A DNA stretch of 64,000 bases from a virus: positions 96,001-160,000 of IMG/VR virus record IMGVR_UViG_3300025009_000051, one strand, 5' to 3'. How positions within the stretch are numbered: position 1 is the stretch's first letter; every line of letters begins with the position of its first letter. Made by a program: the position numbers and the translations under genes. The notes beneath the pieces are model-generated. The model was not told the DNA's origin. It saw only the letters and a program-made list of their open reading frames with translations, and made no database searches. Of the stretch, positions 3,678-63,046 are shown piece by piece.

Positions 3678-4016
3678 ATGAAAAAAATTAACTTATTATT
3701 CAAAATTATTTTGTGTTCAATATTGATTTTTGGTTTTGCTTCTTGTAATGAAGATGCAGGAATAACCACAAAACGATTAAATGGAGACGAACAATATTTA
3801 CCAGAAGAATTAAAAGGTTTGAAGATATATTCGGTAGCACTCGATCAAGGTGGTTATGTTAAAGTAGCTGTTCTGGATAATAAAATAAATTCAACAACTT
3901 ATCGCGTGAGGAAGGCAGATGAATCAGTAATTATATTGAATAGACAAACCAATAAATTAATTGAAGTAAAAGAAATTTTGGTAGAAAACGATAGCATTAT
4001 TGTATGTAGAAAATAA
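3678..4016 (+). CDS. Putative lipoprotein
   Basis: Basic N-terminus, hydrophobic stretch, lipobox FASC. Confidence 0.65.
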   Translation: MKKINLLFKIILCSILIFGFASCNEDAGITTKRLNGDEQYLPEELKGLKIYSVALDQGGYVKVAVLDNKINSTTYRVRKADESVIILNRQTNKLIEVKEILVENDSIIVCRK

Positions 4017-4046
4017 TCTATTAGATTTAAATATAAAAAACAAGAA

Positions 4047-4721
4047 ATGAAAACAGAAAACGAAAAATGGTATTGCCCAGTATGTAAATCAGAAGTGGTT
4101 TATGAAAAGCACAGAAATTGTCAAACATTAGATGAGCACGTTTGCGATCCAAATGGAACTCCTTCATCAAAACCAACTTATCATTGTAGCAATCCAAAAT
4201 GTATTTGTAATAAGCAAAAAGTTTTTTGGGATTGGTATGGTGACATGTACGGGGGGTTTAAAATTCCAGACACTACCTTTATAAATGGTAATGATTCTCC
4301 TTTTGGTTCTCACTCAAGAAAACAAAATGTTGAAATTTACAAGAAAGGCTTACCGAGACAAAAATATTTATCTCCTTGGTGGACTCTTAAACTTTGGCAA
4401 CCAATGATTGAATATCATTATAAATCCAATACAGATGGGGAAGTATTAAAGAAATGGACAAAGATTGAATTCCTCAAAAAAACTGCTGGATTCGATAATA
4501 AATATTGTACTCATGTTTCTTTGTGGAGTCACACTTTAAATTTCTTATTGAAGAATGCAAAAAGACATTACAGAACAAACCAAATTGAAAGGCTATTCAA
4601 AAAATCAAACAATCGTGATTTTATATATAGGTTTGCAGAAAAGCTTGTTATACTTCTTTATTTACGAACTTATTTAAAGGAAGGAAAAAAATTGGATAAT
4701 AAACCAGATTTTCGTTGGTAA
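4047..4721 (+). CDS. Hypothetical protein with N-terminal Zn-ribbon motifs
   Basis: CPVC and CSNPKCIC motifs. Confidence 0.65.
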   Translation: MKTENEKWYCPVCKSEVVYEKHRNCQTLDEHVCDPNGTPSSKPTYHCSNPKCICNKQKVFWDWYGDMYGGFKIPDTTFINGNDSPFGSHSRKQNVEIYKKGLPRQKYLSPWWTLKLWQPMIEYHYKSNTDGEVLKKWTKIEFLKKTAGFDNKYCTHVSLWSHTLNFLLKNAKRHYRTNQIERLFKKSNNRDFIYRFAEKLVILLYLRTYLKEGKKLDNKPDFRW

Positions 4722-4730
4722 AAATAAATT

Positions 4731-4758
4731 TTGTAATCTTAATTTTTTTAGTTATAAT
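4731..4758 (+). promoter_or_regulatory. Promoter TTGTAA-N16-TATAAT in front of orphan omegaRNA copy B
   Basis: Same TTGTWW-N16-TATAAT geometry at 17865-17892, 47989-48016 and 55085-55112 (all on -). Confidence 0.6.
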
Positions 4759-4779
4759 TCTTGCATATAAAACAAAATA

Positions 4780-4877
4780 GGGCCGAGTAGGTCCGAATTA
4801 ACGCCTTTGGAGAGTAACTCGTTGGAGCCTCATTGAATTAGGAAAAATGAATATAAAGAAATTTATATGAAATTTAA
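4780..4877 (+). ncRNA. Orphan TnpB omegaRNA (reRNA) scaffold, copy B
   Basis: ~83% identical to the tnpB 3' end at 19120-19218 and 96/98 identical to 51445-51542; no tnpB upstream. Confidence 0.8.
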
Positions 4878-4903
4878 TATTATGTTTTCGTTAAACTAAT
4901 AAA

Positions 4904-5966
4904 ATGAAACACAAAATCAATTCAGGTAAACTTCCTTTCTATATCGAATCTTTCGAAGTAGAAAAATCTTCTGTTCATATTTCATTTGAAACCTATACTT
5001 GTAAATGGTTAATAGATGGAATTAAAACAGAATATAATATCTTTGAATATCGCATTACTTCTTTATTTGATCTTACTGAAATCGAAGCAATGGATTTAGT
5101 TCAACCAATTATGATTGAGAAAGGAGAAATTATAGACGATGTGACAGGTGAACAATTAAAAGAAGATATGCTCATTGGATTTGAAAATTATATGAAAAAA
5201 CCTAAGCATGCGAATATTATGCATTTTAATTCTGCAATAGATTCTCTAAAATCTTTAATTCAATATGAATATTCAGAATATGATGATTCAAAAAATTATT
5301 TATTGATTATACCAAAACAGTTTAAAAATGGAAATTCTACCACATGAACTCACAACGACTAAAAAAATGAAGCAATCCTTTTATAAAAAATATTTAGAGT
5401 ATTCTTGGTTAGATGCTTTCTATTCTTTCTTTCGTTATGAATTAACCAATCTATTTAAAAATATTTGGTTATTCAGAAAAGATTTATGGAAATTTCGTTG
5501 GTATGATTATGGATATACTCTTAATATTCTACAGACATCTTTAGAAGCTATGGAAAAAGGAATGCATAATGGATATGAAGTACCTGAATCAAGAAATAAA
5601 AAAATTGCTAAAATGCAAAGATCAATTCAAATTTTAAATAATATTAAAACAAATAATTATTATGAATTGGCAGAAAATGAATTACATTTAAAATATACTT
5701 ATGTGCCTTTTGATTTTGAGCCATTAAAAAATAACCCAGAATATTTTAAATTAGTGTCTAAAGAATCTAAAGAAGTTAAAGAAACAAATCGTAAAATTAG
5801 TGATAGAGCGAGAGAAATAGAACAATCGGAATGGAATGAATTATGGGATATTTTTAAAGGTCGGGATATTAACGAATACATAAAATTAAGAAAAGAAAAT
5901 GAGAAAGATAATGGATTATACGATAATTGGTTTGACGGATCTGGAATGTTAGGTTGGTGGGATTAA
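4904..5966 (+). CDS. Two hypothetical ORFs: 4904-5347, 5328-5966
   Basis: Overlapping co-oriented ORFs; no motif recognised. Confidence 0.65.
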
Positions 5967-6153
5967 AAGATTTTTTACTATAAAAATAAATCAAATGAAA
6001 ATAAAAATCGATAGAATATTGTGTCAATTTTATGTAATTCCTTTCGTTAAAATAACCTATGATAAATGGTTAAATGGAAATTACGAATTAATAATTGGAT
6101 GGCTGAATAGAGAGATTATAATATCTATTCAAGTAATACCGTAAAATAAACAT

Positions 6154-9800: not shown

Positions 9801-10094
9801 ATGAAAAAAACAAATTATCATTTATTCTTCTTCTTTGCACTCGTTATTATATTATTAATATTATTATCAGGTTGTGCAGATGTGACAAATGTTCAATCTT
9901 GTGCAACAACTGATGCCGCAGGATTTTTGAGCGGATTATGGCACGGATTTATATGCTGGGTAAGTTTCTTTGGCAGTTTATTTAGTGATAATATTGCCAT
10001 GTACGAAGTAAATAATACAGGAGGTTGGTACGATTTTGGATTTGTTCTTGGATCAGGAATTTTATTAGGAGGAGTAGGTAGATCATCTAAATAA
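9801..10094 (+). CDS. Small membrane lipoprotein
   Basis: Lipobox LSGC, then hydrophobic GLWHGF and GWYDFGFVLG segments. Confidence 0.65.
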   Translation: MKKTNYHLFFFFALVIILLILLSGCADVTNVQSCATTDAAGFLSGLWHGFICWVSFFGSLFSDNIAMYEVNNTGGWYDFGFVLGSGILLGGVGRSSK

Positions 10095-10100
10095 AAAATT

Positions 10101-10574
10101 ATGAGAACAAAGTATGATGGAATAGAATACCACTTCTTTTGGAATGGACCATTTAGTAATTGGTATTTTTCTGAATTTGTAATTGATAATATAAAATTTA
10201 TCGGTGGTGAACAATATATGATGTATCAGAAAGCTATTGTTTTTAATGATACTGACACTGCAGAAAAAATTATGGAAGAAATATTCCCAAATAAACAAAA
10301 ATCATTAGGAAGATTAGTTAAGAATTATGATGATAAAGTATGGGCAGAAAAAAGATATGAATTAGTTAAAAAAGGATTGAGAGAAAAATTTAATCAAAAT
10401 CAATCTTTAAAAAATAAATTAAAATCATATCAAGGTTGTATCTTTGTCGAAGCATCTCCTTATGATAGAATTTGGGGTATTGGATTTTATGATGATGTAG
10501 CTTTACAACATATAGATGAATGGGGGCAAAATTTACTTGGTAAAATATTGACAGAACTGTCAAATGAATTATAG
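10101..10574 (+). CDS. NADAR (YbiA-like) family protein
   Basis: PFSNWY, EQYMMYQKA, QKSLGR and VEASPYDRIWGIG motifs. Confidence 0.9.
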   Translation: MRTKYDGIEYHFFWNGPFSNWYFSEFVIDNIKFIGGEQYMMYQKAIVFNDTDTAEKIMEEIFPNKQKSLGRLVKNYDDKVWAEKRYELVKKGLREKFNQNQSLKNKLKSYQGCIFVEASPYDRIWGIGFYDDVALQHIDEWGQNLLGKILTELSNEL

Positions 10575-12257
10575 ATTGCAGATTACTTCATATTTTAAAC
10601 TACCACAATCCCAAATTCTATCATAACCTAAATTTATCATATTTTCCCATTCTGATAAATCTTTATTTCCATTGTATTTATTAACAATTTGATATTTGGT
10701 AAAATTAAATCTATGTTTTCTTTCCGAATAATTTAATAAATACCAATAATTTGGAGTTCCTTTATCTATTAATTTAAATCCTAATTTTTCATATAAAGTT
10801 GTATTAAGAGTAGAAGACCACCTTCTATCAGCATAACTATGAATTTTATTTGGTTTATATTTAGATATAAAATAATTTAATAGTTTGCCGGCAGTTCCAA
10901 TTGCAATATAATTTTCATTTGCAGCATATCTTATTAATTCATAATCATTTTCTGAATTTTCTTTTTTGCCATATATAATTCTTTTTTTACTAAATGTCAT
11001 AATTGCTATAATTTCATTATTAAAAAAAGCTCCTAATTTAATACTACTTTTATCCTTTCCTTGTATGTGATATTTTTCTAAAAATATATCTTTTTCTTGA
11101 CTCGATATTTCTTTGATAATTGTATTTCTGCCATAAATTCTTTCTTTATTAGTATTTAATTTTAAAATATATTTTAATTTATTTTTTATTAATTCTTTTT
11201 TATTGCACCATTCATCATCAAAAATGTGAATTAATTGAATTCCTTTTTCTTCACATAATTTTGTTTTTGTAATGTGATAATCTTTTAATTTTCCATTCAA
11301 TTCGGAATGCCAGTATAATCCATTAAATTCAATGGCAAGATTAAAATCTGGAAGATAAATATCTATTTCAAATGGATTAATAATAGATTTTGAATGTATT
11401 ACAATATTTTCTATATTTAATGTTTGTAGATATTCTTTAATCTCTATTTCTGGTTTTGATTGAAAAGAAGGAGAATAATTTCCTAATCCTAAAACATAAT
11501 TTTCTGATAATTTATTTTGTGTATTTTTAGATACTATTTCTCCATATTTTTGCTTGTATTCTTTTTGAGAAATATTGTGCAATTTTAAATGACTATTTGT
11601 TAAATATTTTAATTTTTGATTGCATATTTTACATTCGATATAATTTTCAATATTATCAGTTAAAAATTTTTTTCTTTCTAATATATAATGATATTGTTTC
11701 CATAAATAATTATATTCTGGATATTGTTCTAAAAATAAAGATATAGAAACTTTATGTTCTTTTAATAAATGTTGAGTAAACCAACCAGATTTATTTTCTA
11801 TATCAATTGTATTCCAATCACAATATGGGCATTGAAGAATTGGAGAAGTTTCTCTTTCTTCTAGAATATAATATTCTTTAAAATTTTTATCCGAAATATT
11901 GTGTTCATTTCTTAAATGCCTTGTTAATGCACCACTTGCATTTATTGAATCATAAAATATTTTATTGCATATTTTACATTTTAATTGCTTTGTTTTGTCT
12001 CCTTTATCTTTTCTTGCTCTTTTTTGATTTAATTCTACATCTGAATGTTTGCATGTGTTTGAACAATAAACCTTATCTATTGGTGTTTCTCTCTTTCCAC
12101 AAATTTTGCATTTATATAAATTTTCTTCAATTAAAAATTTCTTCTTATATTCATGTTTATCTAATCCATGAATTTTTATATGGTTATAGAAAGAACTCGA
12201 ATTTTGTATTGGTTTATTGCAATATGGACAATAATATAAATATTTTATTTTGATCAT
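10569..12257 (-). CDS. Hef-like homing endonuclease: Zn-finger repeats, PD-(D/E)XK domain, C-terminal GNAT-like domain
   Basis: Repeated CxxC...H motifs; EIDIYLPDFNLAIEFNGLYWH; ELIRYA...SYADRRWS; lies directly downstream of the capsid gene. Confidence 0.75.
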   Translation of the reverse strand: MIKIKYLYYCPYCNKPIQNSSSFYNHIKIHGLDKHEYKKKFLIEENLYKCKICGKRETPIDKVYCSNTCKHSDVELNQKRARKDKGDKTKQLKCKICNKIFYDSINASGALTRHLRNEHNISDKNFKEYYILEERETSPILQCPYCDWNTIDIENKSGWFTQHLLKEHKVSISLFLEQYPEYNYLWKQYHYILERKKFLTDNIENYIECKICNQKLKYLTNSHLKLHNISQKEYKQKYGEIVSKNTQNKLSENYVLGLGNYSPSFQSKPEIEIKEYLQTLNIENIVIHSKSIINPFEIDIYLPDFNLAIEFNGLYWHSELNGKLKDYHITKTKLCEEKGIQLIHIFDDEWCNKKELIKNKLKYILKLNTNKERIYGRNTIIKEISSQEKDIFLEKYHIQGKDKSSIKLGAFFNNEIIAIMTFSKKRIIYGKKENSENDYELIRYAANENYIAIGTAGKLLNYFISKYKPNKIHSYADRRWSSTLNTTLYEKLGFKLIDKGTPNYWYLLNYSERKHRFNFTKYQIVNKYNGNKDLSEWENMINLGYDRIWDCGSLKYEVICNL

Positions 12258-16604: not shown

Positions 16605-16862
16605 TTAAACTTCCATATCTTTTATTTTCTTGTACATATAGGTAAATTCTTCAATACTTATATCTAATCCTTTTAAAATATTATAGATAATAGCGATTTG
16701 TTGGTTTTTATTTAAATTAATCTTCTTAACTGTATCTGTAAATTTTTCTAAAAACTTTGTAAGATTTCCAGGTATTCTAACTTCTGCATAATCTACTTCT
16801 TTTAATTGTTGCTTTAATTCTTCTCGAATTATTTGTCTGAGCTTGATTTCGTTTTTATCCAT
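16605..16862 (-). CDS. Hypothetical protein, possibly virion-associated
   Basis: LRQIIREELK motif; late-type promoter at 16878-16886. Confidence 0.6.
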   Translation of the reverse strand: MDKNEIKLRQIIREELKQQLKEVDYAEVRIPGNLTKFLEKFTDTVKKINLNKNQQIAIIYNILKGLDISIEEFTYMYKKIKDMEV

Positions 16863-16903
16863 TGTTTTATTTTTAATAATAAATATAAAAATAATTTTTT
16901 TAT

Positions 16904-17854: not shown

Positions 17855-17982
17855 ATTCATTTGTATTATATTAATTTAACGAAATTATACAAAAATATAT
17901 TGATTTATATAAATTTATTGTTTGAAAAAAATTAGGTTCTTTTTTTATTTTTTATAGTTATATGTATAAAAAGAATGTATAA

Positions 17983-19176
17983 ATGTTAAAAGCAATTAAA
18001 ATAAGAATATATCCAAATCAAGAACAAATGAATTATATAAATAATTTATTAGGATCTGCAAGATTTGTTTATAACAACTGCTTGGCATTTAAGATTGATT
18101 CTTATAACAACGAAAAGAAAAATGTTGGATTCGCTGAATTAGGTAGATATTTGACTGAATTGAAACAGAAAGAAGAATTTATTTGGTTAAAAGATGTACA
18201 TGCTAAGGTCTTGCAGCAATCTCTAATTAATCTAAATCAAGCTTATTCTAATTTTTTTAAAAATGGATTTGGATTTCCTAATTTCAAGAGTAGGAAAAGC
18301 TACAAGCAATCTTGTAGATTTCCGAAAGATGCAATTGGTAAGATTGAAGAAAATAAAATAACTTTGATTAAACAATTAAAAAATATTCCATTTAGATGCT
18401 CTGAAAGAGATAAAAATTATTTGAACTCTCATCAAGAAAATATTCATTCTGCGACACTCTTAAAAACTAAAACAAATAAATATTATCTTTCAATTTTAAT
18501 TGATTTTGAGTTAAATAAAAAATTAAAAGAAACAGAAAAAATCATTGGAATTGATCTTGGAATTAAAAATTTTATTGTAACTTCTGAGAATGAAAAAATT
18601 GAAAATATTAAAATTATTAGAAACAATCAAGAAAAATTAAAAAAATTACATCAAAATTTATCAAAGAAGAAAAACGGATCAAAAAATAAAGAGAAAGCAA
18701 GGATCAAATTGGCCAGATTCAACGAAAAATTAAACAACAAAAAAGAGTTTTATTTGCATCAAATATCAAATCAATTATTAGATGAAAACCAAGTCATAAT
18801 AATGGAAGATTTAGATATTAAGAGCATGCTTCAAAATCATCAATTAGCTCGAAGTATCCAAGAATTGTCTTTATATACATTTAAATCAATCTTGAAATAC
18901 AAAGCTAAATGGTATAATAGAGACATCATTGAAATCAATAAATTCTTTCCTTCGTCAAAATTATGTTCTTCTTGTGGTTACAAGAAAGATGATTTAGAAT
19001 TAAAAGACAGAAATTGGACCTGTCCAGAATGTGGAGCAGAACATGAAAGAGATTTAAATGCAGCTAAAAATATTTTGAAAGAAGGAAAGAGAATATTAGA
19101 AATAAAAGAAAACAAAATAGGGCTGAGTAGGCCCGAATCAACGCTTGTGGAGAGCAACTCATTAGAGTCTCGTTGA
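17983..19176 (+). mobile_element. tnpB: IS200/IS605-family RNA-guided endonuclease TnpB; no tnpA adjacent
   Basis: N-terminal KAIKIRIYPN...ARFVYN; RuvC I IGIDLG, RuvC II IMEDL, RuvC III RDLNAAKNI; CSSCG/CPECG zinc finger. Confidence 0.95.
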
Positions 19177-19218
19177 AACAAGAAAAAATTCATATAAAGA
19201 TTTTTATATGAAATTTAA
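19120..19218 (+). ncRNA. omegaRNA scaffold overlapping the tnpB 3' end (copy A); guide position follows from about 19219
   Basis: GGGCT/GGCCC stem, TCAACG/CGTTGA stem, CTTG/CAAG pseudoknot, perfect 10-bp TTCATATAAA/TTTATATGAA hairpin then ATTTAA. Confidence 0.85.
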
Positions 19219-19280
19219 TACTATATTGACTATAATCTCTAATCTGACTCAAAAGATGTGTGGCACGATCGCCAAATTGT

Positions 19281-19740
19281 CTAATACAGATATAAATCTA
19301 AAACTTCGTCTGAACAAGGTACACATTTTAAAATATTTTCTTTTGAAATTAATTTATCTCCAGAATTTCTAACATATTCTTCATTAAACTTGGACCAGTG
19401 GCAATAAATTGCCCAATCATTTCCATATCCCTTTACCGCAACCCATCTTAATTCTCCCCCAGCTCGTGTCATAAATAATCCTTCTGGACTATTTGGTAAA
19501 ACTCCTGTTCCTATTTCTTCTCCAGGTAAAATTTTATTAAATTCTTCTAAGGTTAATTGTTTCATGTCTTTATTATTCATATTTTATTCCTCTCCTTTTT
19601 AATTCATCTATTCCTTCATTCATTAATTTAAAAGAATTGCTACGATATTCCTCTAATTCAGGCTTTCCAGTGCACAAACTGAATACTTCTTTAAGCTTAA
19701 CTGTAAGATCAATTAAACTCGATGTTGGTAATGTTTCCAT
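19281..19740 (-). CDS. Two hypothetical ORFs: 19281-19580, 19573-19740
   Basis: Co-oriented overlapping ORFs. Confidence 0.6.
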
Positions 19741-19985
19741 GTCTTTATTATTTAATGTTCGTTTTACAAATATATAGATAATAAATGAAAGAAACAAATA
19801 ATTTTATTGATCTTCTTCGGTTAATATGTTTAAATCTGTTAAAAAATTTTCCACCTTCTCACATGATTCGCCAAGCAAGAAAAGGTAGGTGGCATCATAA
19901 ATTAAAGTTTTCATTTGTTCGCTTGTTGCACTACTAAATGCTGTTTCTAATTGTTTTGTATCAATTTTCATAACTAATATATTAG

Positions 19986-20554
19986 GTTAATAAATATATT
20001 GAATTATAGTAAAAATCTTTGAAAAAACCGAATAATTATCCGCCTATTTTTTAATTAAAATTTGTAAATCAATTAGAAAATTTCTATTGCTTTCTGAGGC
20101 GTCTCCAGATAAATAATTATTTACAGCATTGTAAATTAAAGTTTTCAGATGCTCACTTTTTTCAATTTCAAATATTGTTCGTAATAATGTGGTATTAATT
20201 TTCATAATTCTTATTTTTTAGTTATTAAACAGACTTTTGCAACACTAACCAACTTTCTGGTAAGAACTGACGTATATTGTCAGCATCATACATATAAAAC
20301 CCTTCTTCGTTATAATATGCTTTGGTACTGAAATGAGCGAAAGTTGCTTCTCCGTCTGGAATTAAAAAATAAGCACGTTTCATAACATCGGATATATCTA
20401 ATTCCGATACGTGTCCTAATAAAGTGTTTTCGTTTTCTGGCATTTTTCTATTTATTTAAGTTTATAGTAATTAAAAAATCTGAACTAAAATATATCCAAG
20501 AACAGTTAATAAATATATTGAATTATAGTAAAAATTTTTGAAAAAAACAAATAA
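19986..20554. repeat. ~50-bp direct repeat at 19986-20035 and 20505-20554 flanking two small - strand ORFs (incl. 20225-20443)
   Basis: GTTAATAAATATATTGAATTATAGTAAAAAT(C/T)TTTGAAAAAA(C/A)C(G/A)AATAA present twice. Confidence 0.85.
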
Positions 20555-22726: not shown

Positions 22727-23635
22727 ATGATAATATATAAAACAATCAATTTAATTAACGGTAAATTTTATATAGGAAAAGATTCAAAAAATAATCCCGA
22801 TTATTTTGGATCAGGAATAATTCTAAAAAAAGCTATTAAAAAATATGGTAAAGAAAATTTTAAAAAAGAAATTCTAGAATATTGTAATTCTGAAAAGGAA
22901 TTAGATCAAAAAGAAATATTTTGGATTAAAAAATTAAATTCCATTGAGAACGGATATAATATTGCTTTGGGAGGAACTGGAGGAGATACATTTACAAATA
23001 ATCCAAATAAAGAAAAAATTATTCAAAATTTAAGTCAAAAATTAACCGGAGGAAAGTTATCAGAAAAAACAAGAAAAAATATGAGTAATGGTAGAAAGGG
23101 AATGAAATTTTCAGAAGAACATAAACAAAATATAAGTAAAGCTCAAATAGGAATAAAATTTATATATAATATTAAAACAAGACAGATAAGAAAAGTAAAA
23201 AAGAACGAATTAGAAGAATTTTTATTAAATAATTCTGATTGGAAATTAGGAAAAGGAATTACATTAACTAAAGAACATAAAGAAAAATTAAATAACTCAA
23301 GAAGAGGCATAAAATCATCTAATGAGACAAAGCAAAAAATAAGTCAATCAAAAAAAGGAATCAAATTAACAGAAAAGCATAAACAAAATATAAGTATAGC
23401 CCTAACAGGTATAAAATTGTCAAATGAACACAGAAAAAATATGAGTATTTCTCATCAAGGAAAGAAAAGAAAACCTTTTAGCGAAGAAACAAAGAAAAAA
23501 ATGAGTAAAGCAGCTAAAAATAGGCCGGACGTTTCAGATGAAACTAAACAGAAATTAAGTGAAGCTAATAAAGGTAGAATACCTTGGAATAAAGGAATTC
23601 ATTATTCTAAAAATATTAAAGAAAATGAATTATAA
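22727..23635 (+). CDS. GIY-YIG homing endonuclease with NUMOD3-like repeats
   Basis: IIYKTINLINGKFYIGK...YFGSG; repeated SEEHKQNISKA-type motifs. Confidence 0.9.
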   Translation: MIIYKTINLINGKFYIGKDSKNNPDYFGSGIILKKAIKKYGKENFKKEILEYCNSEKELDQKEIFWIKKLNSIENGYNIALGGTGGDTFTNNPNKEKIIQNLSQKLTGGKLSEKTRKNMSNGRKGMKFSEEHKQNISKAQIGIKFIYNIKTRQIRKVKKNELEEFLLNNSDWKLGKGITLTKEHKEKLNNSRRGIKSSNETKQKISQSKKGIKLTEKHKQNISIALTGIKLSNEHRKNMSISHQGKKRKPFSEETKKKMSKAAKNRPDVSDETKQKLSEANKGRIPWNKGIHYSKNIKENEL

Positions 23636-35930: not shown

Positions 35931-36619
35931 CTAACCTTTTATTTTAGGTATGTTTTTATTGAACTCTTTACAGATATTAGCCATTGCTTCAAATATATCT
36001 GATAAAGGTTGATTAGTTGAACTAATTGGAGAATCATCTTTATATTCATTTTCTTTATCTCTTCCAGGTACTTCTTCAATAAATTCATAAGTAAAATCAT
36101 TGTGCTTGCACCAATCTATAATTTGATCTTTTGTAGCATTACTAAAAAAGCAATCTTCAAATTGTTCTTGATTTCCTTCAAACACATCTCCGTTGTCAAT
36201 TAATATTTTCATGTTCTTTTGTTTTTATTACTACAAATTTACAAATAAAATTTGATATAAAAAAATATTATTTAAAATAAATTTTAAGTTTGATAATCAG
36301 GATCTTTTGGTGGAGCAAAGTCCATCATAATTGCGGTTAGAGTTTTAAATAAATGTTTTGTGCTCCACATCGCTAATATGTGTTTTTCACTCCAAATCAT
36401 ATATTCTGCGTCTACTTTATAATATCCGCCGTCGTCTGTTACAATAATCCAATTTTTGGTTGTTTGTGGATCATTACCTTTATAATACGCAAAACAATGT
36501 TTCCAATTTCGATTGTTATGTGGTAATAACTTTGATTTAATAAACTCTTGAGCAGAATCTGGTAATGTGTCTCCTTCAAATTCTTTCCAACCATTACAAT
36601 TAAAATTTATCTTTTTCAT
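35931..36619 (-). CDS. Two hypothetical ORFs: 35931-36212, 36284-36619, each behind a TAnnTTTG promoter
   Basis: ORF track plus promoter motifs. Confidence 0.6.
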
Positions 36620-36705
36620 GTTATTTGTTTTTTATACTACAAATATAAACTAAAAAAATGATTTAAAAAAATAATTTTATATTTATTTTAAAAATATTTT
36701 ACGTC

Positions 36706-41980: not shown

Positions 41981-42038
41981 CTTCTTTTGTTTTTATATTA
42001 CAAATATACAACGAATAAATGACAATAAAAAATTATTT

Positions 42039-44541
42039 TTAATTTATTTTTTTAAAACAATCACAAGATTTACAATATTCTTCTGATATTTTTGTTCTTA
42101 AATTTGTTTCTCCTAAATCCGTCAATGTCCAGCATCCCATTCGACCGTTCAATGCTTCCGGGTAATCGCACCATTTAGGTTGTTTAAAATTTTCCAAAAT
42201 ATAACCGATAGTTCGTTTTTCTTCAATTAATTGATCTATCTCTTCTTGAGTCAATTCGTGAAAATATTTCTTGTTGGGATTTGTGATATTAATCGGTGTT
42301 TCTGATTCAATTATTATTTTCATTTTCTTCATTTATTTTTGTAATTTTAAATCCTGCATTCTTTAATTGATTTTCAAAATCTACACAAATATTTCTATAT
42401 TTTTGAATTCCCCCGTCACATCTGGATAGGAATAAAAACAAGTCTACACCTTCATCATTTAATACCCAATCAAATCCTTTTGTAAAAACTTGTATAGTTG
42501 CATTTACAACATACAATCTTTTCTTTTTTGTCATTGTTTCGACATTTCGAATACAAAATAAATTTGAATGTCTACCAATTAGTAGGTTATCCAGATTATT
42601 GTTAATCTCATCAAGTGTTTCTTGATTAATTCTTATTTTCATATTTTTTTATTTAATTAAAAGAAAACTGCATCGTTTAGGTTGTAGAAGTCCAATTTAC
42701 AAAGATAAAATTCCTACTGCACAAACAATAAGGATTAAAACAAAAATTGTTTTTTGACTTAAAGTCATTTGATCAAAATCTTTTTCTAATAAAAACATAT
42801 CTTTTTAATTTTAAATTTATATTACAAAGTTAAACGAATTTATTGAATAATCAAATTATTTTATATGTTTTTTTATTTCAATAAATATCTTGCAAGATAT
42901 ATAAATTCCTGTGAAAATATAAAATATAAAAAAAATAATATTTTCATCTTTAGTTGAAGTAGGAACATAATGTTCTGCAATGGTGCATAAGAAAACAAAA
43001 CCTAGAGTAAGTAATATACCCAATGCAGCATTTTTAAAAATAATTATTGGTATCATAGCTTTTATTTTTATAGTAATTCTGAATGATAAAATTTAACGAA
43101 CGGATCAACTTTAAATAACCATACAAATTTATATTGGTCTTCTTTTGGAATAGAATCTAAAATTTTTCTGATTTGAGGTGTGTTTGTAATGAGGAATCCT
43201 CCTGTCATGTGTTCTTCTCCATTTCGTGTAATTACAGCGAATTCATTTGTCTTACTAAAGTTATTAGCAACCAATTCAACTTCTTCATATCCGTTTGTTT
43301 CGGAAGTAATGTGTAAGATTTTCATAATTGTTTAGTTTTAATTAAAAATAAAAAATATAATATATAAGAGTAAACCTATTGACATAAATAATAAATATGC
43401 CCCAGACAATTGAAATTTTTCATCTATTTTATTTTTTGTCTTTTCTTTATTATATGCTAAATTTCCAAAAATAGCAAATAAGAAATACAACAAAGAAATT
43501 ATTTTTAATACAAAGAATAAAAAAGAACTTTCAGCATACATTTCAGCAGTAAAACACGCTGCTCCAATAAGAACAACCATCATACTACACACAAACGATA
43601 TCCAACTAATAGTAAAATAAAATTTTGATTCATATTTTAAAAATTGAATTGTATCTTCTATTCCGGTTCTATATTTATTAAAAATTCTATTCTTTTCAGA
43701 TTTCTTCTTTTTATTTTCTTTTAAATTTCTTTCTTGCCGTAATATTTGTAGACAAAAGGAGAAATCTTCTTCTGATACATCTGTTCCCATTGTTTCCATT
43801 TCAATTAAATATCCTAATTGAATTTTTGCATCTTGAATATCTTTTTTAATTAATGAAAAAGTATCATGATATTCTCGATATGATTTTTCAGTTATCATAA
43901 AAGATTTTTTTCCACATACCAATTCTTTTGTATTGTAATATGGATCGATTTCTTTAGGTCGTTTTGGTAATTCCATAATATTTTAGTGAAGGTATAAATA
44001 AACATTTACAAATAATCTTAATGCATTAATTGCAGTCGAATCTGCTCTTTGAATTGCTCCTTGTAAATCATTATTACAAATTGCTTGAACAAAACTTCCT
44101 CCTCTCATTACATTATCTCGAGTATTAACAATGCTCATACAAAGATTAGTTATGTGATCAAGTTCAACTAAACTTGTACAATTATTTGAAATTAAACTAA
44201 TATTTTTTTCAACATATTGTTGAACAGCTTCTCGTTCCATATTAATTATTTTAAATTACTTCGTTTATTAAACACCTCATATCTTCTTCAAATCTTTCAA
44301 AATATGCAAACAAGTCGTCTACATTCTCCAAAGGAATTGTATATAACAATTCATCTTTAAACCAGTGCGGATAATTTTTAACATCTTCTTGAAAAGAATC
44401 TGGATATGTATTTTCATATTCTTTTTTATCCGTTCCCTTCAAATATATCTTAATGAATTTTCCATCTTTAACTGCCTTATGAGTATCATTTTGTTTAATA
44501 ATACTGTTGACTTTCTTTGTTTTTAATGCTTCTAATTCCAT
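42039..44541 (-). CDS. Run of hypothetical ORFs: 42039-42332, 42307-42642, 42856-43056, 43068-43325, 43338-43976, 43983-44240, 44251-44541
   Basis: Co-oriented ORFs, several hydrophobic, behind TAnnTTTG promoters. Confidence 0.6.
42661..42695 (+). mobile_element. Solo IS200/IS605-type end-hairpin remnant
   Basis: 42671-42691 matches the reverse complement of 15220-15240 at 20/21 nt; ends AAGTCCAA. Confidence 0.5.
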
Positions 44542-44635
44542 TTCGTTTGTTTTTATACTACAAATATACAACGAATAAATGAAACAAAAAAATAATTTTG
44601 AATAATTTTTTATATTTATTGTAAATGAATTTAGT

Positions 44636-51411: not shown

Positions 51412-51444
51412 AACTTCAATTTATTTTTGTATTTCGTTATAGTA

Positions 51445-51542
51445 TTAAATTTCATATAAATTTCTTTATATTCATTTTTCCTAATTCAATGAGTCTCCAA
51501 TGAGTTACTCTCCAAAGGCGTTAATTCGGACCTACTCGGCCC
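51445..51542 (-). ncRNA. Orphan TnpB omegaRNA scaffold, copy C
   Basis: Reverse complement is 96/98 identical to 4780-4877; no tnpB upstream. Confidence 0.8.
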
Positions 51543-51559
51543 TATTTTCTTTTATAATA

Positions 51560-51590
51560 CAAATTTAAATATTTTTTTGATATAAACAAA
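51560..51590 (-). promoter_or_regulatory. Bacteroidota-type promoter TTTG-N19-TAAATTTG directly upstream of omegaRNA copy C
   Basis: Exact consensus match and spacing. Confidence 0.7.
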
Positions 51591-51598
51591 ATTTATTT

Positions 51599-51805
51599 TT
51601 AAGGTTCTAATTTTAATCCCCGTTTATAGAGCCAATTCAGAACTTCCACTAAATCTGTGCTTTTGATTAAATCATCATTTTCGATTTTATAAACAATCTT
51701 TAACTCTTCTCCTGAATCTGAATGGTAGGCGTATTCAACCTTTTTCTCTTCTTTAAACTTATCTGTAGCAAATTCTGACATCATTTGATTGTTGTATCTC
51801 TTCAT
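51599..51805 (-). CDS. Hypothetical protein
   Basis: ORF track. Confidence 0.55.
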   Translation of the reverse strand: MKRYNNQMMSEFATDKFKEEKKVEYAYHSDSGEELKIVYKIENDDLIKSTDLVEVLNWLYKRGLKLEP

Positions 51806-55311: not shown

Positions 55312-56419
55312 TACTAAATATTATTGTGTATGTGGATTTTCACATAAAAGTAAATTATCTTTAGGTCAACACAGAAGCAGATGTGAAATATTTAAAAATT
55401 ATCTTTTATCAATATCAAATGAAATTGTTTTTGAAAAATATCTAAAACAAGGAATAGCAATCTCCAGGTTGGCACAAGAATATCAAATTGATAGAAGTAT
55501 AATAGAAAAAATAATTAAACAACATAAAATTCCAATTAGAACAGGAAAAGAATCTCAAAATTTGAATTCTGTAAAACAAAAAAGAATAAATACTCAATTA
55601 GCAAAGTTCGGTGTAGAAAATTGCATGCAAAATAAAGACATTTATAAAAAATTTAAAGAAACATGCATTAAAAAATATGGTGTAGAATATCCAATGCAAT
55701 CAAACGAAATAAAAGAAAAATTAAAAAAAATAATATTATAAAAATATGGTGTAGAAAATACATTTCAAAATGAATTAATAAAAGAAAAATCGAAAAAAAC
55801 AATGTTAGAAAAATATGGAGTAGACCATAATACAAAATTTTTAAATTGGGAAGAAAACACAAAAAAAAGAAATTTAAAAAAATATGGTTGTGAATGGCCA
55901 ATGCAATCACAAATAATAAAAAATAAAGCTAAACAAACAAAAAAAGAAATATATGGAAATGAATATTATACCAATCCTACTAAAGCATTAAAAACAAAAA
56001 TAAAAAATAATATAACTCAAAATAAATCATACATTCCATCAATATATTCTCAAAATTTATTTTGGAAAATTTATGAGCAATTAGAAAATAAAGAACACAT
56101 TTATTTTGCCAAATTAAATAAAGAATTTGGAAAATATAATTCAATAAATAATAAATATTATTTTTATGATTTTGTAGATACAAAAAATAAAAAGATAATT
56201 GAATTTAATGGAGATTATTGGCATATGAATCCAAATAAATTTAAATCTGCAGATATACATCCAACTTCAAAATTATTAGCAGAAGAAATATGGTATAAAG
56301 ATCAACAAAAAATAAATTTTATTACATCAATTGGTTTTAAAGTTTTAATTATTTGGGAGGCAGAAGCTAAACAAAATGAAAGTATAATTATTAATAAGTG
56401 CATTAATTTTTTAAAATAA
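55298..56419 (+). pseudogene. Homing endonuclease (KYGV repeats plus Vsr/PD-(D/E)XK domain) split by an in-frame TAA at 55739-55741
   Basis: ORFs 55298-55741 and 55802-56419 are in the same frame and the linker reads IIL*KYGVENT; C-terminus has YDF...IIEFNGDYWH...GFKVLIIWE. Confidence 0.75.
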
Positions 56420-62956: not shown

Positions 62957-63046
62957 ATTCTTTTTATTTTCTATATACAAATATACAGTTATTAAATGAA
63001 GTAAACAAATTTATTTTAATTCAAATTTTTCTTTTTTAATACTTAA

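Follow-up and report, generated by a model that had tools for sequence, protein, structure and literature searches.

A structurally intact omegaRNA scaffold without tnpB in a huge phage genome: probable internal-deletion origin and a candidate guide-only locus

The omegaRNAs of ISDra2-type TnpB nucleases arise from the tnpB 3′ end and the right end of the element, form a multi-helix scaffold that stops at the element boundary and take their guide from the adjoining sequence; in established TnpB biology, the guide is the flank adjacent to the element end (PMC10055086). The locus described here, copy B, shares this organization and has an ISDra2-like partner protein (PDB 8bf8, E = 2e-64), but it has no tnpB in cis, and its scaffold lies right behind promoter-like DNA rather than within a coding region. 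Gene-less, PATE-like derivatives of IS605 elements that encode omegaRNAs for TnpBs located elsewhere have already been discussed (Meers et al. 2023, PMC10055086); the phage setting here is unusual. Like a PATE, copy B has no protein gene, has kept the right-end omegaRNA and would need TnpB from another element in trans. PATEs, however, keep both end hairpins and are mobilised by TnpA, whereas copy B and its twin, copy C, have lost the left-end hairpin by deletion, retaining only its 5′ arm, and no Y1 transposase is found in the record, which is 79% complete. There are also only two such copies here, behind phage-type promoters in a huge phage of lytic type.

Two phage systems provide further comparisons. 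The free-standing homing endonucleases of T4-like phages (Seg and Mob), together with the TnpA-independent, non-restorative homing between co-infecting phages set out in PMC13565253, share with copy B an intergenic position between phage genes and a proposed mode of spread, in which a co-infecting genome that lacks the insertion suffers a double-strand break and is repaired by recombination; here, in contrast, an RNA guide would provide the recognition, the nuclease would be encoded elsewhere and the mobile unit would be the guide alone. TldR proteins, which are TnpB-derived RNA-guided transcription factors of phages (PMC10705468), are likewise phage-borne TnpB relatives with a guide RNA that serves beyond transposon maintenance, but they lack RuvC catalysis and have their guide adjacent to the gene, whereas here the nuclease appears intact and the extra guides are dispersed. 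The scaffolds do not form a CRISPR-like array, as they lie 13–47 kb apart on both strands, with no tandem units.

The window that we analysed is a stretch of 64,000 nucleotides, positions 96,001–160,000 of the 183.7-kb record IMGVR_UViG_3300025009_000051, and feature coordinates refer to it. The phage genome has a GC content of 26% and carries T4-like genes, including those for a Gp23 capsid protein, a fused type II topoisomerase and thymidylate synthase; sister assemblies of ~292 kb come from groundwater metagenomes. Copy B (4769–4890) matches 19109–19227 at 83% identity (E = 4e-30) and copy C (51439–51553, minus strand) at 97%. An earlier reading of this DNA, made from the letters alone (the sequence-only reading), had described 4780–4877 as reproducing the tnpB 3′ end at ~83% without a tnpB open reading frame (ORF). 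Re-measurement gave the same 83%, and neither the ORF list nor a domain search yielded a tnpB ORF, domain or remnant beside copies B and C. BLAST and a covariance model identified only three scaffold copies in the 183.7-kb record, namely the tnpB-linked copy A and the tnpB-less copies B and C. The model scan had been proposed in the same reading; run with the model R1 described below, it returned A, B and C alone in this record and a single, tnpB-linked copy in the other related phage record searched whole (G001).

Searches further afield returned little. No Rfam family matched at gathering thresholds anywhere in the window, blastn of 4000–6000 against a phage GenBank collection gave zero matches and the scaffold pattern had zero matches in viral_contigs. 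In metagenome_contigs, the pattern matched 64 times; 63 of these are chance matches, and the single real one (L053) is a 93.5% relative of copy A that is cut at the start of its contig. Other repeats in this genome include two in-frame series, of 51 nt at 22727–23635 and of 69 nt (a 23-residue period) at 55586–55956; the ORF that contains the 51-nt series has a sister-assembly counterpart with faint GIY-YIG and NUMOD3 matches. A ~90-nt repeat with four copies in the genome (82–90% identical) occurs at 16796–16875 of the window and at three sites around 67.1–69.4 kb of the whole record (G000), and also in an unrelated context on the L053 contig (1568–1660).

Copy B is preceded by a spacer (4719–4768, plus strand) that holds the stop codon of the ORF at 4047–4721, a 16-mer, promoter-like hexamers and a left-end stub. 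The scaffold itself (4769–4884, plus strand) comprises four conserved helices and a 7-bp terminal hairpin and ends in ATTATG. The predicted guide is the 20-nt stretch that follows the element on its right (4885–4904, plus strand); it doubles as the 5′ leader of the downstream gene and reaches the A of that gene's ATG. That gene (4904–5347, plus strand, 147 aa) would be co-transcribed downstream of scaffold B. The tnpB gene (17983–19176, plus strand) encodes a 397-aa ISDra2-like protein and follows a left-end/promoter region (17944–17982, plus strand) with T6-AT-AGTTATA and TGTATAAAAAG boxes homologous to the spacer of B. Its cognate scaffold, copy A (19109–19225, plus strand), covers the last 68 nt of tnpB, ends in ACTATA and has its predicted guide at 19226–19245. 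Copy C (51438–51553, minus strand; predicted guide 51437–51418) stands behind a phage-type promoter (51550–51601, minus strand) that reads TTTG-N19-TAAATTTG and then TATTATAAAA.

An alignment of ten sequences, built with omegaRNA regions from eight tnpB-linked loci, was folded with RNAalifold; the consensus has 12 pairs distributed over four helices, and 7 of these pairs show double changes. Across the alignment, 99.2% of cells are paired, against at most 51% in slid-partner controls; none of 500 shuffles reached the observed values on four of five measures, and one did so on the fifth. Copies B and C each form all 12 consensus pairs. The covariance model R1 scores B at 114.3 bits over 4773–4884, C at 114.5, A at 122.4 and the linked relatives at 74–122; because B and C belonged to its training set, their scores show consistency, not independent detection.

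The differences between A and B that the sequence-only reading had listed are real as letters, and several of them require a different interpretation. Stem 1 reads GGGCT/GGCCC in A and GGGCC/GGTCC in B with pairing kept, but this is no joint change: it consists of two separate one-sided changes (U·G to C–G and G–C to G·U). The second helix, CTTG/CAAG in A and CCT/AGG in B, had been called a pseudoknot, whereas it is a nested helix in the consensus fold, with two pairs fewer in B than in A. The replacement of the terminal loop GATT of A by GAAA in B holds, and the terminal stem has 10 bp in A and 7 bp in B. Copy B combines homology to the tnpB 3′ end and right end, a covarying structure and a scaffold that ends at the element boundary, in a genome with one D/E/D and zinc-ribbon TnpB. 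We conclude that it is, as predicted from its sequence, an omegaRNA scaffold that lacks tnpB but is structurally intact, and that its guide position differs from those of A and C.

The right end of the element is set by the flanks. Similarity is lost after A(C/T)TAT(A/G) in four independent right flanks (A/L083, L053, B and C), and beyond this motif the flanks of A, B, C and L053 are unrelated; in the more distant relatives (the L174–L187 loci), the right end reads ACTATT. Because the four flanks diverge at this point, we place the right end of B at 4884 and therefore infer that its guide would occupy 4885–4904. The 20-mer suggested earlier begins ~7 nt too early, as the end defined by the four flanks lies 6–7 nt further on. 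A guide search, also suggested earlier, produced chance matches only: the 18-mers of B and C have 1 and 8 exact matches in viral_contigs, respectively, all of which stop at the edge of the 18-mer and have unrelated flanks.

The TnpB at 17983–19176, 13 kb from B, is the only full-length TnpB gene product of the record. Pfam detects PF12323, PF01385 and PF07282, and the alignment to ISDra2 TnpB (PDB 8bf8) places its GIDLG, MEDL and ERD motifs. Both the RuvC D/E/D residues and the CxxC...CxxC zinc ribbon are present, and the protein is predicted to be catalytically intact; we assume that it is the cognate nuclease for the B-type scaffold and would accept it, although helix 2 and the terminal hairpin of B and C are not those of A. 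Y1 TnpA (PF01797) has zero matches in the 184-kb record (79% complete), with control genomes positive. The TnpBs of the eight linked relatives are 63–93% identical to that of the phage, and the closest genomic TnpB relatives are in Bacteroidales. Those with 63–66% identity (L174–L187) come mostly from phage contexts, on contigs of 200–340 kb and beside sheath, gp32 and RecA/UvsX-like genes, a distribution suggestive of a TnpB clade that resides in phages. Outside the window, at G000:C1:73995-74204 (minus strand), an open frame of 248 aa gives a second OrfB_IS605 match, weaker at 43.8 bits; it has no zinc-ribbon domain match and may be a truncated or divergent TnpB relative. One sister contig (L083) differs from window positions 17951–19050 by ~10% over the tnpB body (its positions 10030–11130), is unrelated upstream of ~17925, and is 100% identical to 19051–20550 and ~99% identical beyond. 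Its tnpB is by these comparisons a mosaic allele, with a right edge ~60 nt before the omegaRNA scaffold.

Several features point to the loss of a tnpB gene from copies B and C. Homology to the tnpB 3′ end begins at the same point in both (AAAA-C/G-AAAATAGGG), and in both the old tnpB frame is still open to the same stop, with a tail nearer the family consensus than the tail of A. Upstream of B, T7-AGTTATA (4743–4756) is followed by a TGCATATAAAAC box (4762–4773); upstream of tnpB, T6-AT-AGTTATA is followed by TGTATAAAAAG, a TG(C/T)ATA..AAAA box as upstream of B. Counting both strands of the 184-kb genome (367 kb), T6-N1-2-AGTTATA is confined to 4743 and 17948. When the spacers preceding B and C were aligned locally to the sequence preceding tnpB, the result was not significant relative to shuffled sequences, and for B only, this rare-motif test took the place of the alignment; upstream of C, a left-end stub and a native phage promoter are not separable by sequence. 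Because the rare motif upstream of B matches the left end of the tnpB element, we consider it very probable that B is an internal-deletion derivative composed of a left-end/promoter stub, the full scaffold and the right end. The parent of B and C would be a sister lineage of A whose tnpB is unsampled.

A plausible route to such a deletion lies in the 5′ edge of the scaffold. Sister-assembly tnpB alleles (P0243 and P0245; 19056–19118) carry tandem duplications exactly at this edge, either 39 nt long and in frame or out of frame with a truncated tail, and we therefore regard it as a slippage hot spot. Deletion of the tnpB body by slippage in A-rich repeats would fuse the stub to the 5′ edge, leaving the whole scaffold and right end in place. 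The start of the L053 contig also coincides with the tnpB duplication point at this edge.

At their left ends, relatives have an AGTATT-TATGTATAA box and then a short TGTATA...TATACA hairpin just before the tnpB ATG; it is the 5′ arm of this hairpin that B and C retain. The left-boundary motifs differ among loci (AGTATT in four relatives, TAGTTA in A and B, ATATT in C) and yielded no defined TAM. A perfect A7/T7 inverted repeat with an 8-nt loop lies upstream of tnpB at 17925–17946, where the high identity with the sister assembly stops on the left side; at the corresponding places, B has only the T-run and C only the A-run. An empty, insertion-free site was found neither in population contigs nor in sequencing-run contigs. 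The spacers are identical in all population contigs (L084–L091), with no polymorphism. In the sequencing-run contigs, the only signals were cross-matches from copies A and C, and no joint bridged B; among the runs listed for this DNA, none is recorded as RNA. In viral_contigs, the flanking proteins of B and C gave no relatives. The ORF downstream of B has none at all, and those of the RlaP-like gene downstream of C, at most 57% identical, not syntenic and without the spacer, supply no empty site.

Expression of the two scaffolds is plausible to different degrees. The hexamers from which the sequence-only reading had deduced an own promoter for B (TTGTAA-N16-TATAAT, 4731–4758) exist in the spacer, but equally good matches are about as frequent as chance predicts, with 12 in 1.6 kb where 10.7 are expected. 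The simplest view of this 'own promoter' is that it represents the left-end/promoter stub of the parent element. A 16-mer at 4719–4734, which includes a −33-like TTTG, has an exact match upstream of C and is assigned on its sequence to the −33 part of a phage promoter family. Members of this family, which we take to be of the Bacteroidota type, have a TTTG box, a spacer of ~19 nt and TAnnTTTG-TAnTATAAAA, with the start codon ~10 nt further on. A perfect 18-mer of the family (TATTATAAAA) immediately precedes copy C and is one of four perfect copies in the window, the other three of which precede genes; the version of the phage −7 box at copy B is degenerate. Predicted transcription from the 5′ edge of the scaffold is therefore well supported by sequence for C and plausible for B. 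Promoter-like repeats also occur on the minus strand at 19748–19820, 36215–36287, 36621–36693, 41982–42054, 44542–44614 and 62959–63031, with an A/T-rich TTTG box, a spacer of ~16–19 nt, TAnnTTTG-TAnTATAAAA and an ATG ~10 nt later. Their Bacteroidota −33/−7 look hints at the host phylum.

We polarised the 12 fixed differences between A and B/C in 77 alignable columns with six outgroup omegaRNAs. Seven of the 12 are changes on the tnpB-linked A/L053 lineage, including the T>C/A>G pair of helix 2, for which the CCT...AGG of B and C is the common family state (L174, L186 and L187). This pair had been cited as a pairing-preserving change in B; it arose on the A lineage, and B and C keep the family consensus. 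The terminal hairpin base of B had similarly been described as broken (TTCA>TGAA), whereas TGAA is the family consensus (GAAT in L174, L186 and L004) and the extra pairing in A is derived. The claim built on these changes, that B was selected as an RNA rather than as a mobile DNA end, is not supported: seven of the 12 changes lie on the A lineage, and two B/C sites that bear on the question are suggestive only.

These two sites are among the five differences specific to B and C. Columns 12 and 20 are invariant in all eight linked copies and lie in codons for I-G-L-S-x-P, a motif conserved in the TnpB tail; these codons are broken in B and C (L to P and P to S), and stem 1 is still paired (U·G to C–G and G–C to G·U). 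With two sites, this pattern is suggestive of relaxed coding constraint with retained RNA constraint. Between copies B and C there are five differences, none at a paired position, an outcome with a probability of ~0.13 by chance. Departures from well-conserved columns number two in B/C, fewer than in most linked copies, and in these comparisons we see no sign of decay in either copy. The reading of B as a trans-acting guide locus is thus supported in part, by the intact scaffold, its own guide position and a predicted intact TnpB 13 kb away, and not by the RNA-selection argument.

We place at about even the proposition that B, with its twin C, is an internally deleted, tnpB-less derivative of an IS605-family, TnpB-only element, like the one still intact at 17.9–19.2 kb, and acts as a guide-only locus in trans, in homing into or exclusion of insertion-free relatives. 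It must be weighed above all against the possibility, which we rate as appreciable and well below even, that B and C are young, functionless fossils of one or more tnpB elements that lost their gene by slippage deletion, the element having inserted at each locus or at one locus and then been copied by recombination. The polarised differences agree with a fossil, as most of them, helix-2 pair included, arose in the tnpB-linked lineage. With only five B/C-specific changes and five differences between B and C, there has been little time for decay; the intactness of the structure may reflect a recent deletion, and the avoidance of paired positions is within reach of chance (~0.13). The promoter of B is not better than chance, and orphan copies are absent from G001, the only other related record searched whole, and so are not a regular family feature. 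Less easily reconciled with inert remnants are the two independent loci that keep a complete scaffold from the exact 5′ edge to the right end, the promoter-like sequence that differs between the loci and is a perfect match to the phage motif at C, the preservation of the helix by both B/C-specific changes at invariant columns and the fixation of the loci, which do not vary among the sampled contigs. Read as a fossil, the locus is only a tidy record of the decay of a tnpB element via slippage at the 5′ edge of the scaffold.

Two further explanations assign the scaffolds a role in this genome itself. Each of the two elements has promoter-like sequence on one side and, on the other, a start codon 20–27 nt past its right end, TnpB processes its own transcript into omegaRNA (PMC10278001) and relatives of the RlaP-like gene have no such spacer; the scaffold might therefore be a structured 5′ leader acting in cis, where binding or processing by TnpB tunes the downstream mRNA (that of 4904–5347, or of the RlaP-like gene for C) with no DNA guiding. 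We consider this improbable, as the two downstream genes have no functional link, any insertion into a leader gives the same arrangement and a terminator or attenuator feature is absent. The other explanation starts from the likeness of the right flanks of B and C to a segment upstream of tnpB (17866–17903). In reverse orientation, 17867–17886 agrees with the B flank at 18 of 20 positions, the only match of at least 17 in the genome, and the best genome-wide gapped match of the C flank is 17877–17903 (direct, 24/27, with a 3-nt gap). In DNA this rich in AT, either match by itself would be marginal, but the two overlap, which is unlikely by chance (roughly 0.001–0.005). The guides could then aim at this segment, where TnpB would bind without cutting for self-regulation or protection. 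We regard such self-targeting as very improbable: the gap in the C match follows position 7, guide position 1 is mismatched in the B match, the 5′-adjoining bases at the two sites are unlike each other and unlike the family left-flank motifs, and TnpB is catalytically intact by prediction, unlike known TnpB-derived regulators. The resemblance is more simply, and more probably, due to shared ancestry of the flanks, in the form of a permuted copy or of a paralogous module between genes, although neither form fits both orientations cleanly. We also considered C as a right-end/left-end circle junction and rejected it, as this explains the C flank and not the inverted B flank.

If B is instead a guide-only element acting in trans, the stub, or read-through from the upstream gene, would transcribe the scaffold together with the next ~16–20 nt (4885–4904), and the single phage TnpB would bind this RNA in trans. 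The complex would cut co-infecting relatives that have the same locus without the insertion, and recombinational repair would copy the mini-element in, or the rival allele would be excluded, in a TnpA-independent, non-restorative form of homing. In the carrier, the element would separate the adjacent motif from the target, and the carrier genome would thus be spared. That B actually functions in trans in this way is, in our estimate, slightly less than an even prospect. The lack of a Y1 transposase match and the loss of the left hairpin exclude classical peel-and-paste transposition, and the spread of B and C would therefore depend wholly on the proposed homing route. The features that RNA-guided homing calls for are still in place: a scaffold with a locus-specific guide, a nuclease in trans and a self-interrupting element. 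A fuller version, a dispersed multi-guide system in which one TnpB is served by promoter-driven guide-only loci that are fixed in the population, are directed against insertion-free rival alleles and spread by homing alone, is doubtful on present indications.

Should the RNAs of B and C be made and loaded, a single TnpB would be re-aimed by separate guide-only loci, and the phage would offer a natural example of trans-supplied omegaRNAs ~116 nt long. A guide-only mini-element may then persist and spread in a virus by RNA-guided homing. Dispersed guide loci of this kind would form a natural halfway stage from transposon nucleases with a single guide to CRISPR-like effectors with many, which bears on the evolution towards multi-guide systems and on the competition of huge phages in co-infection.
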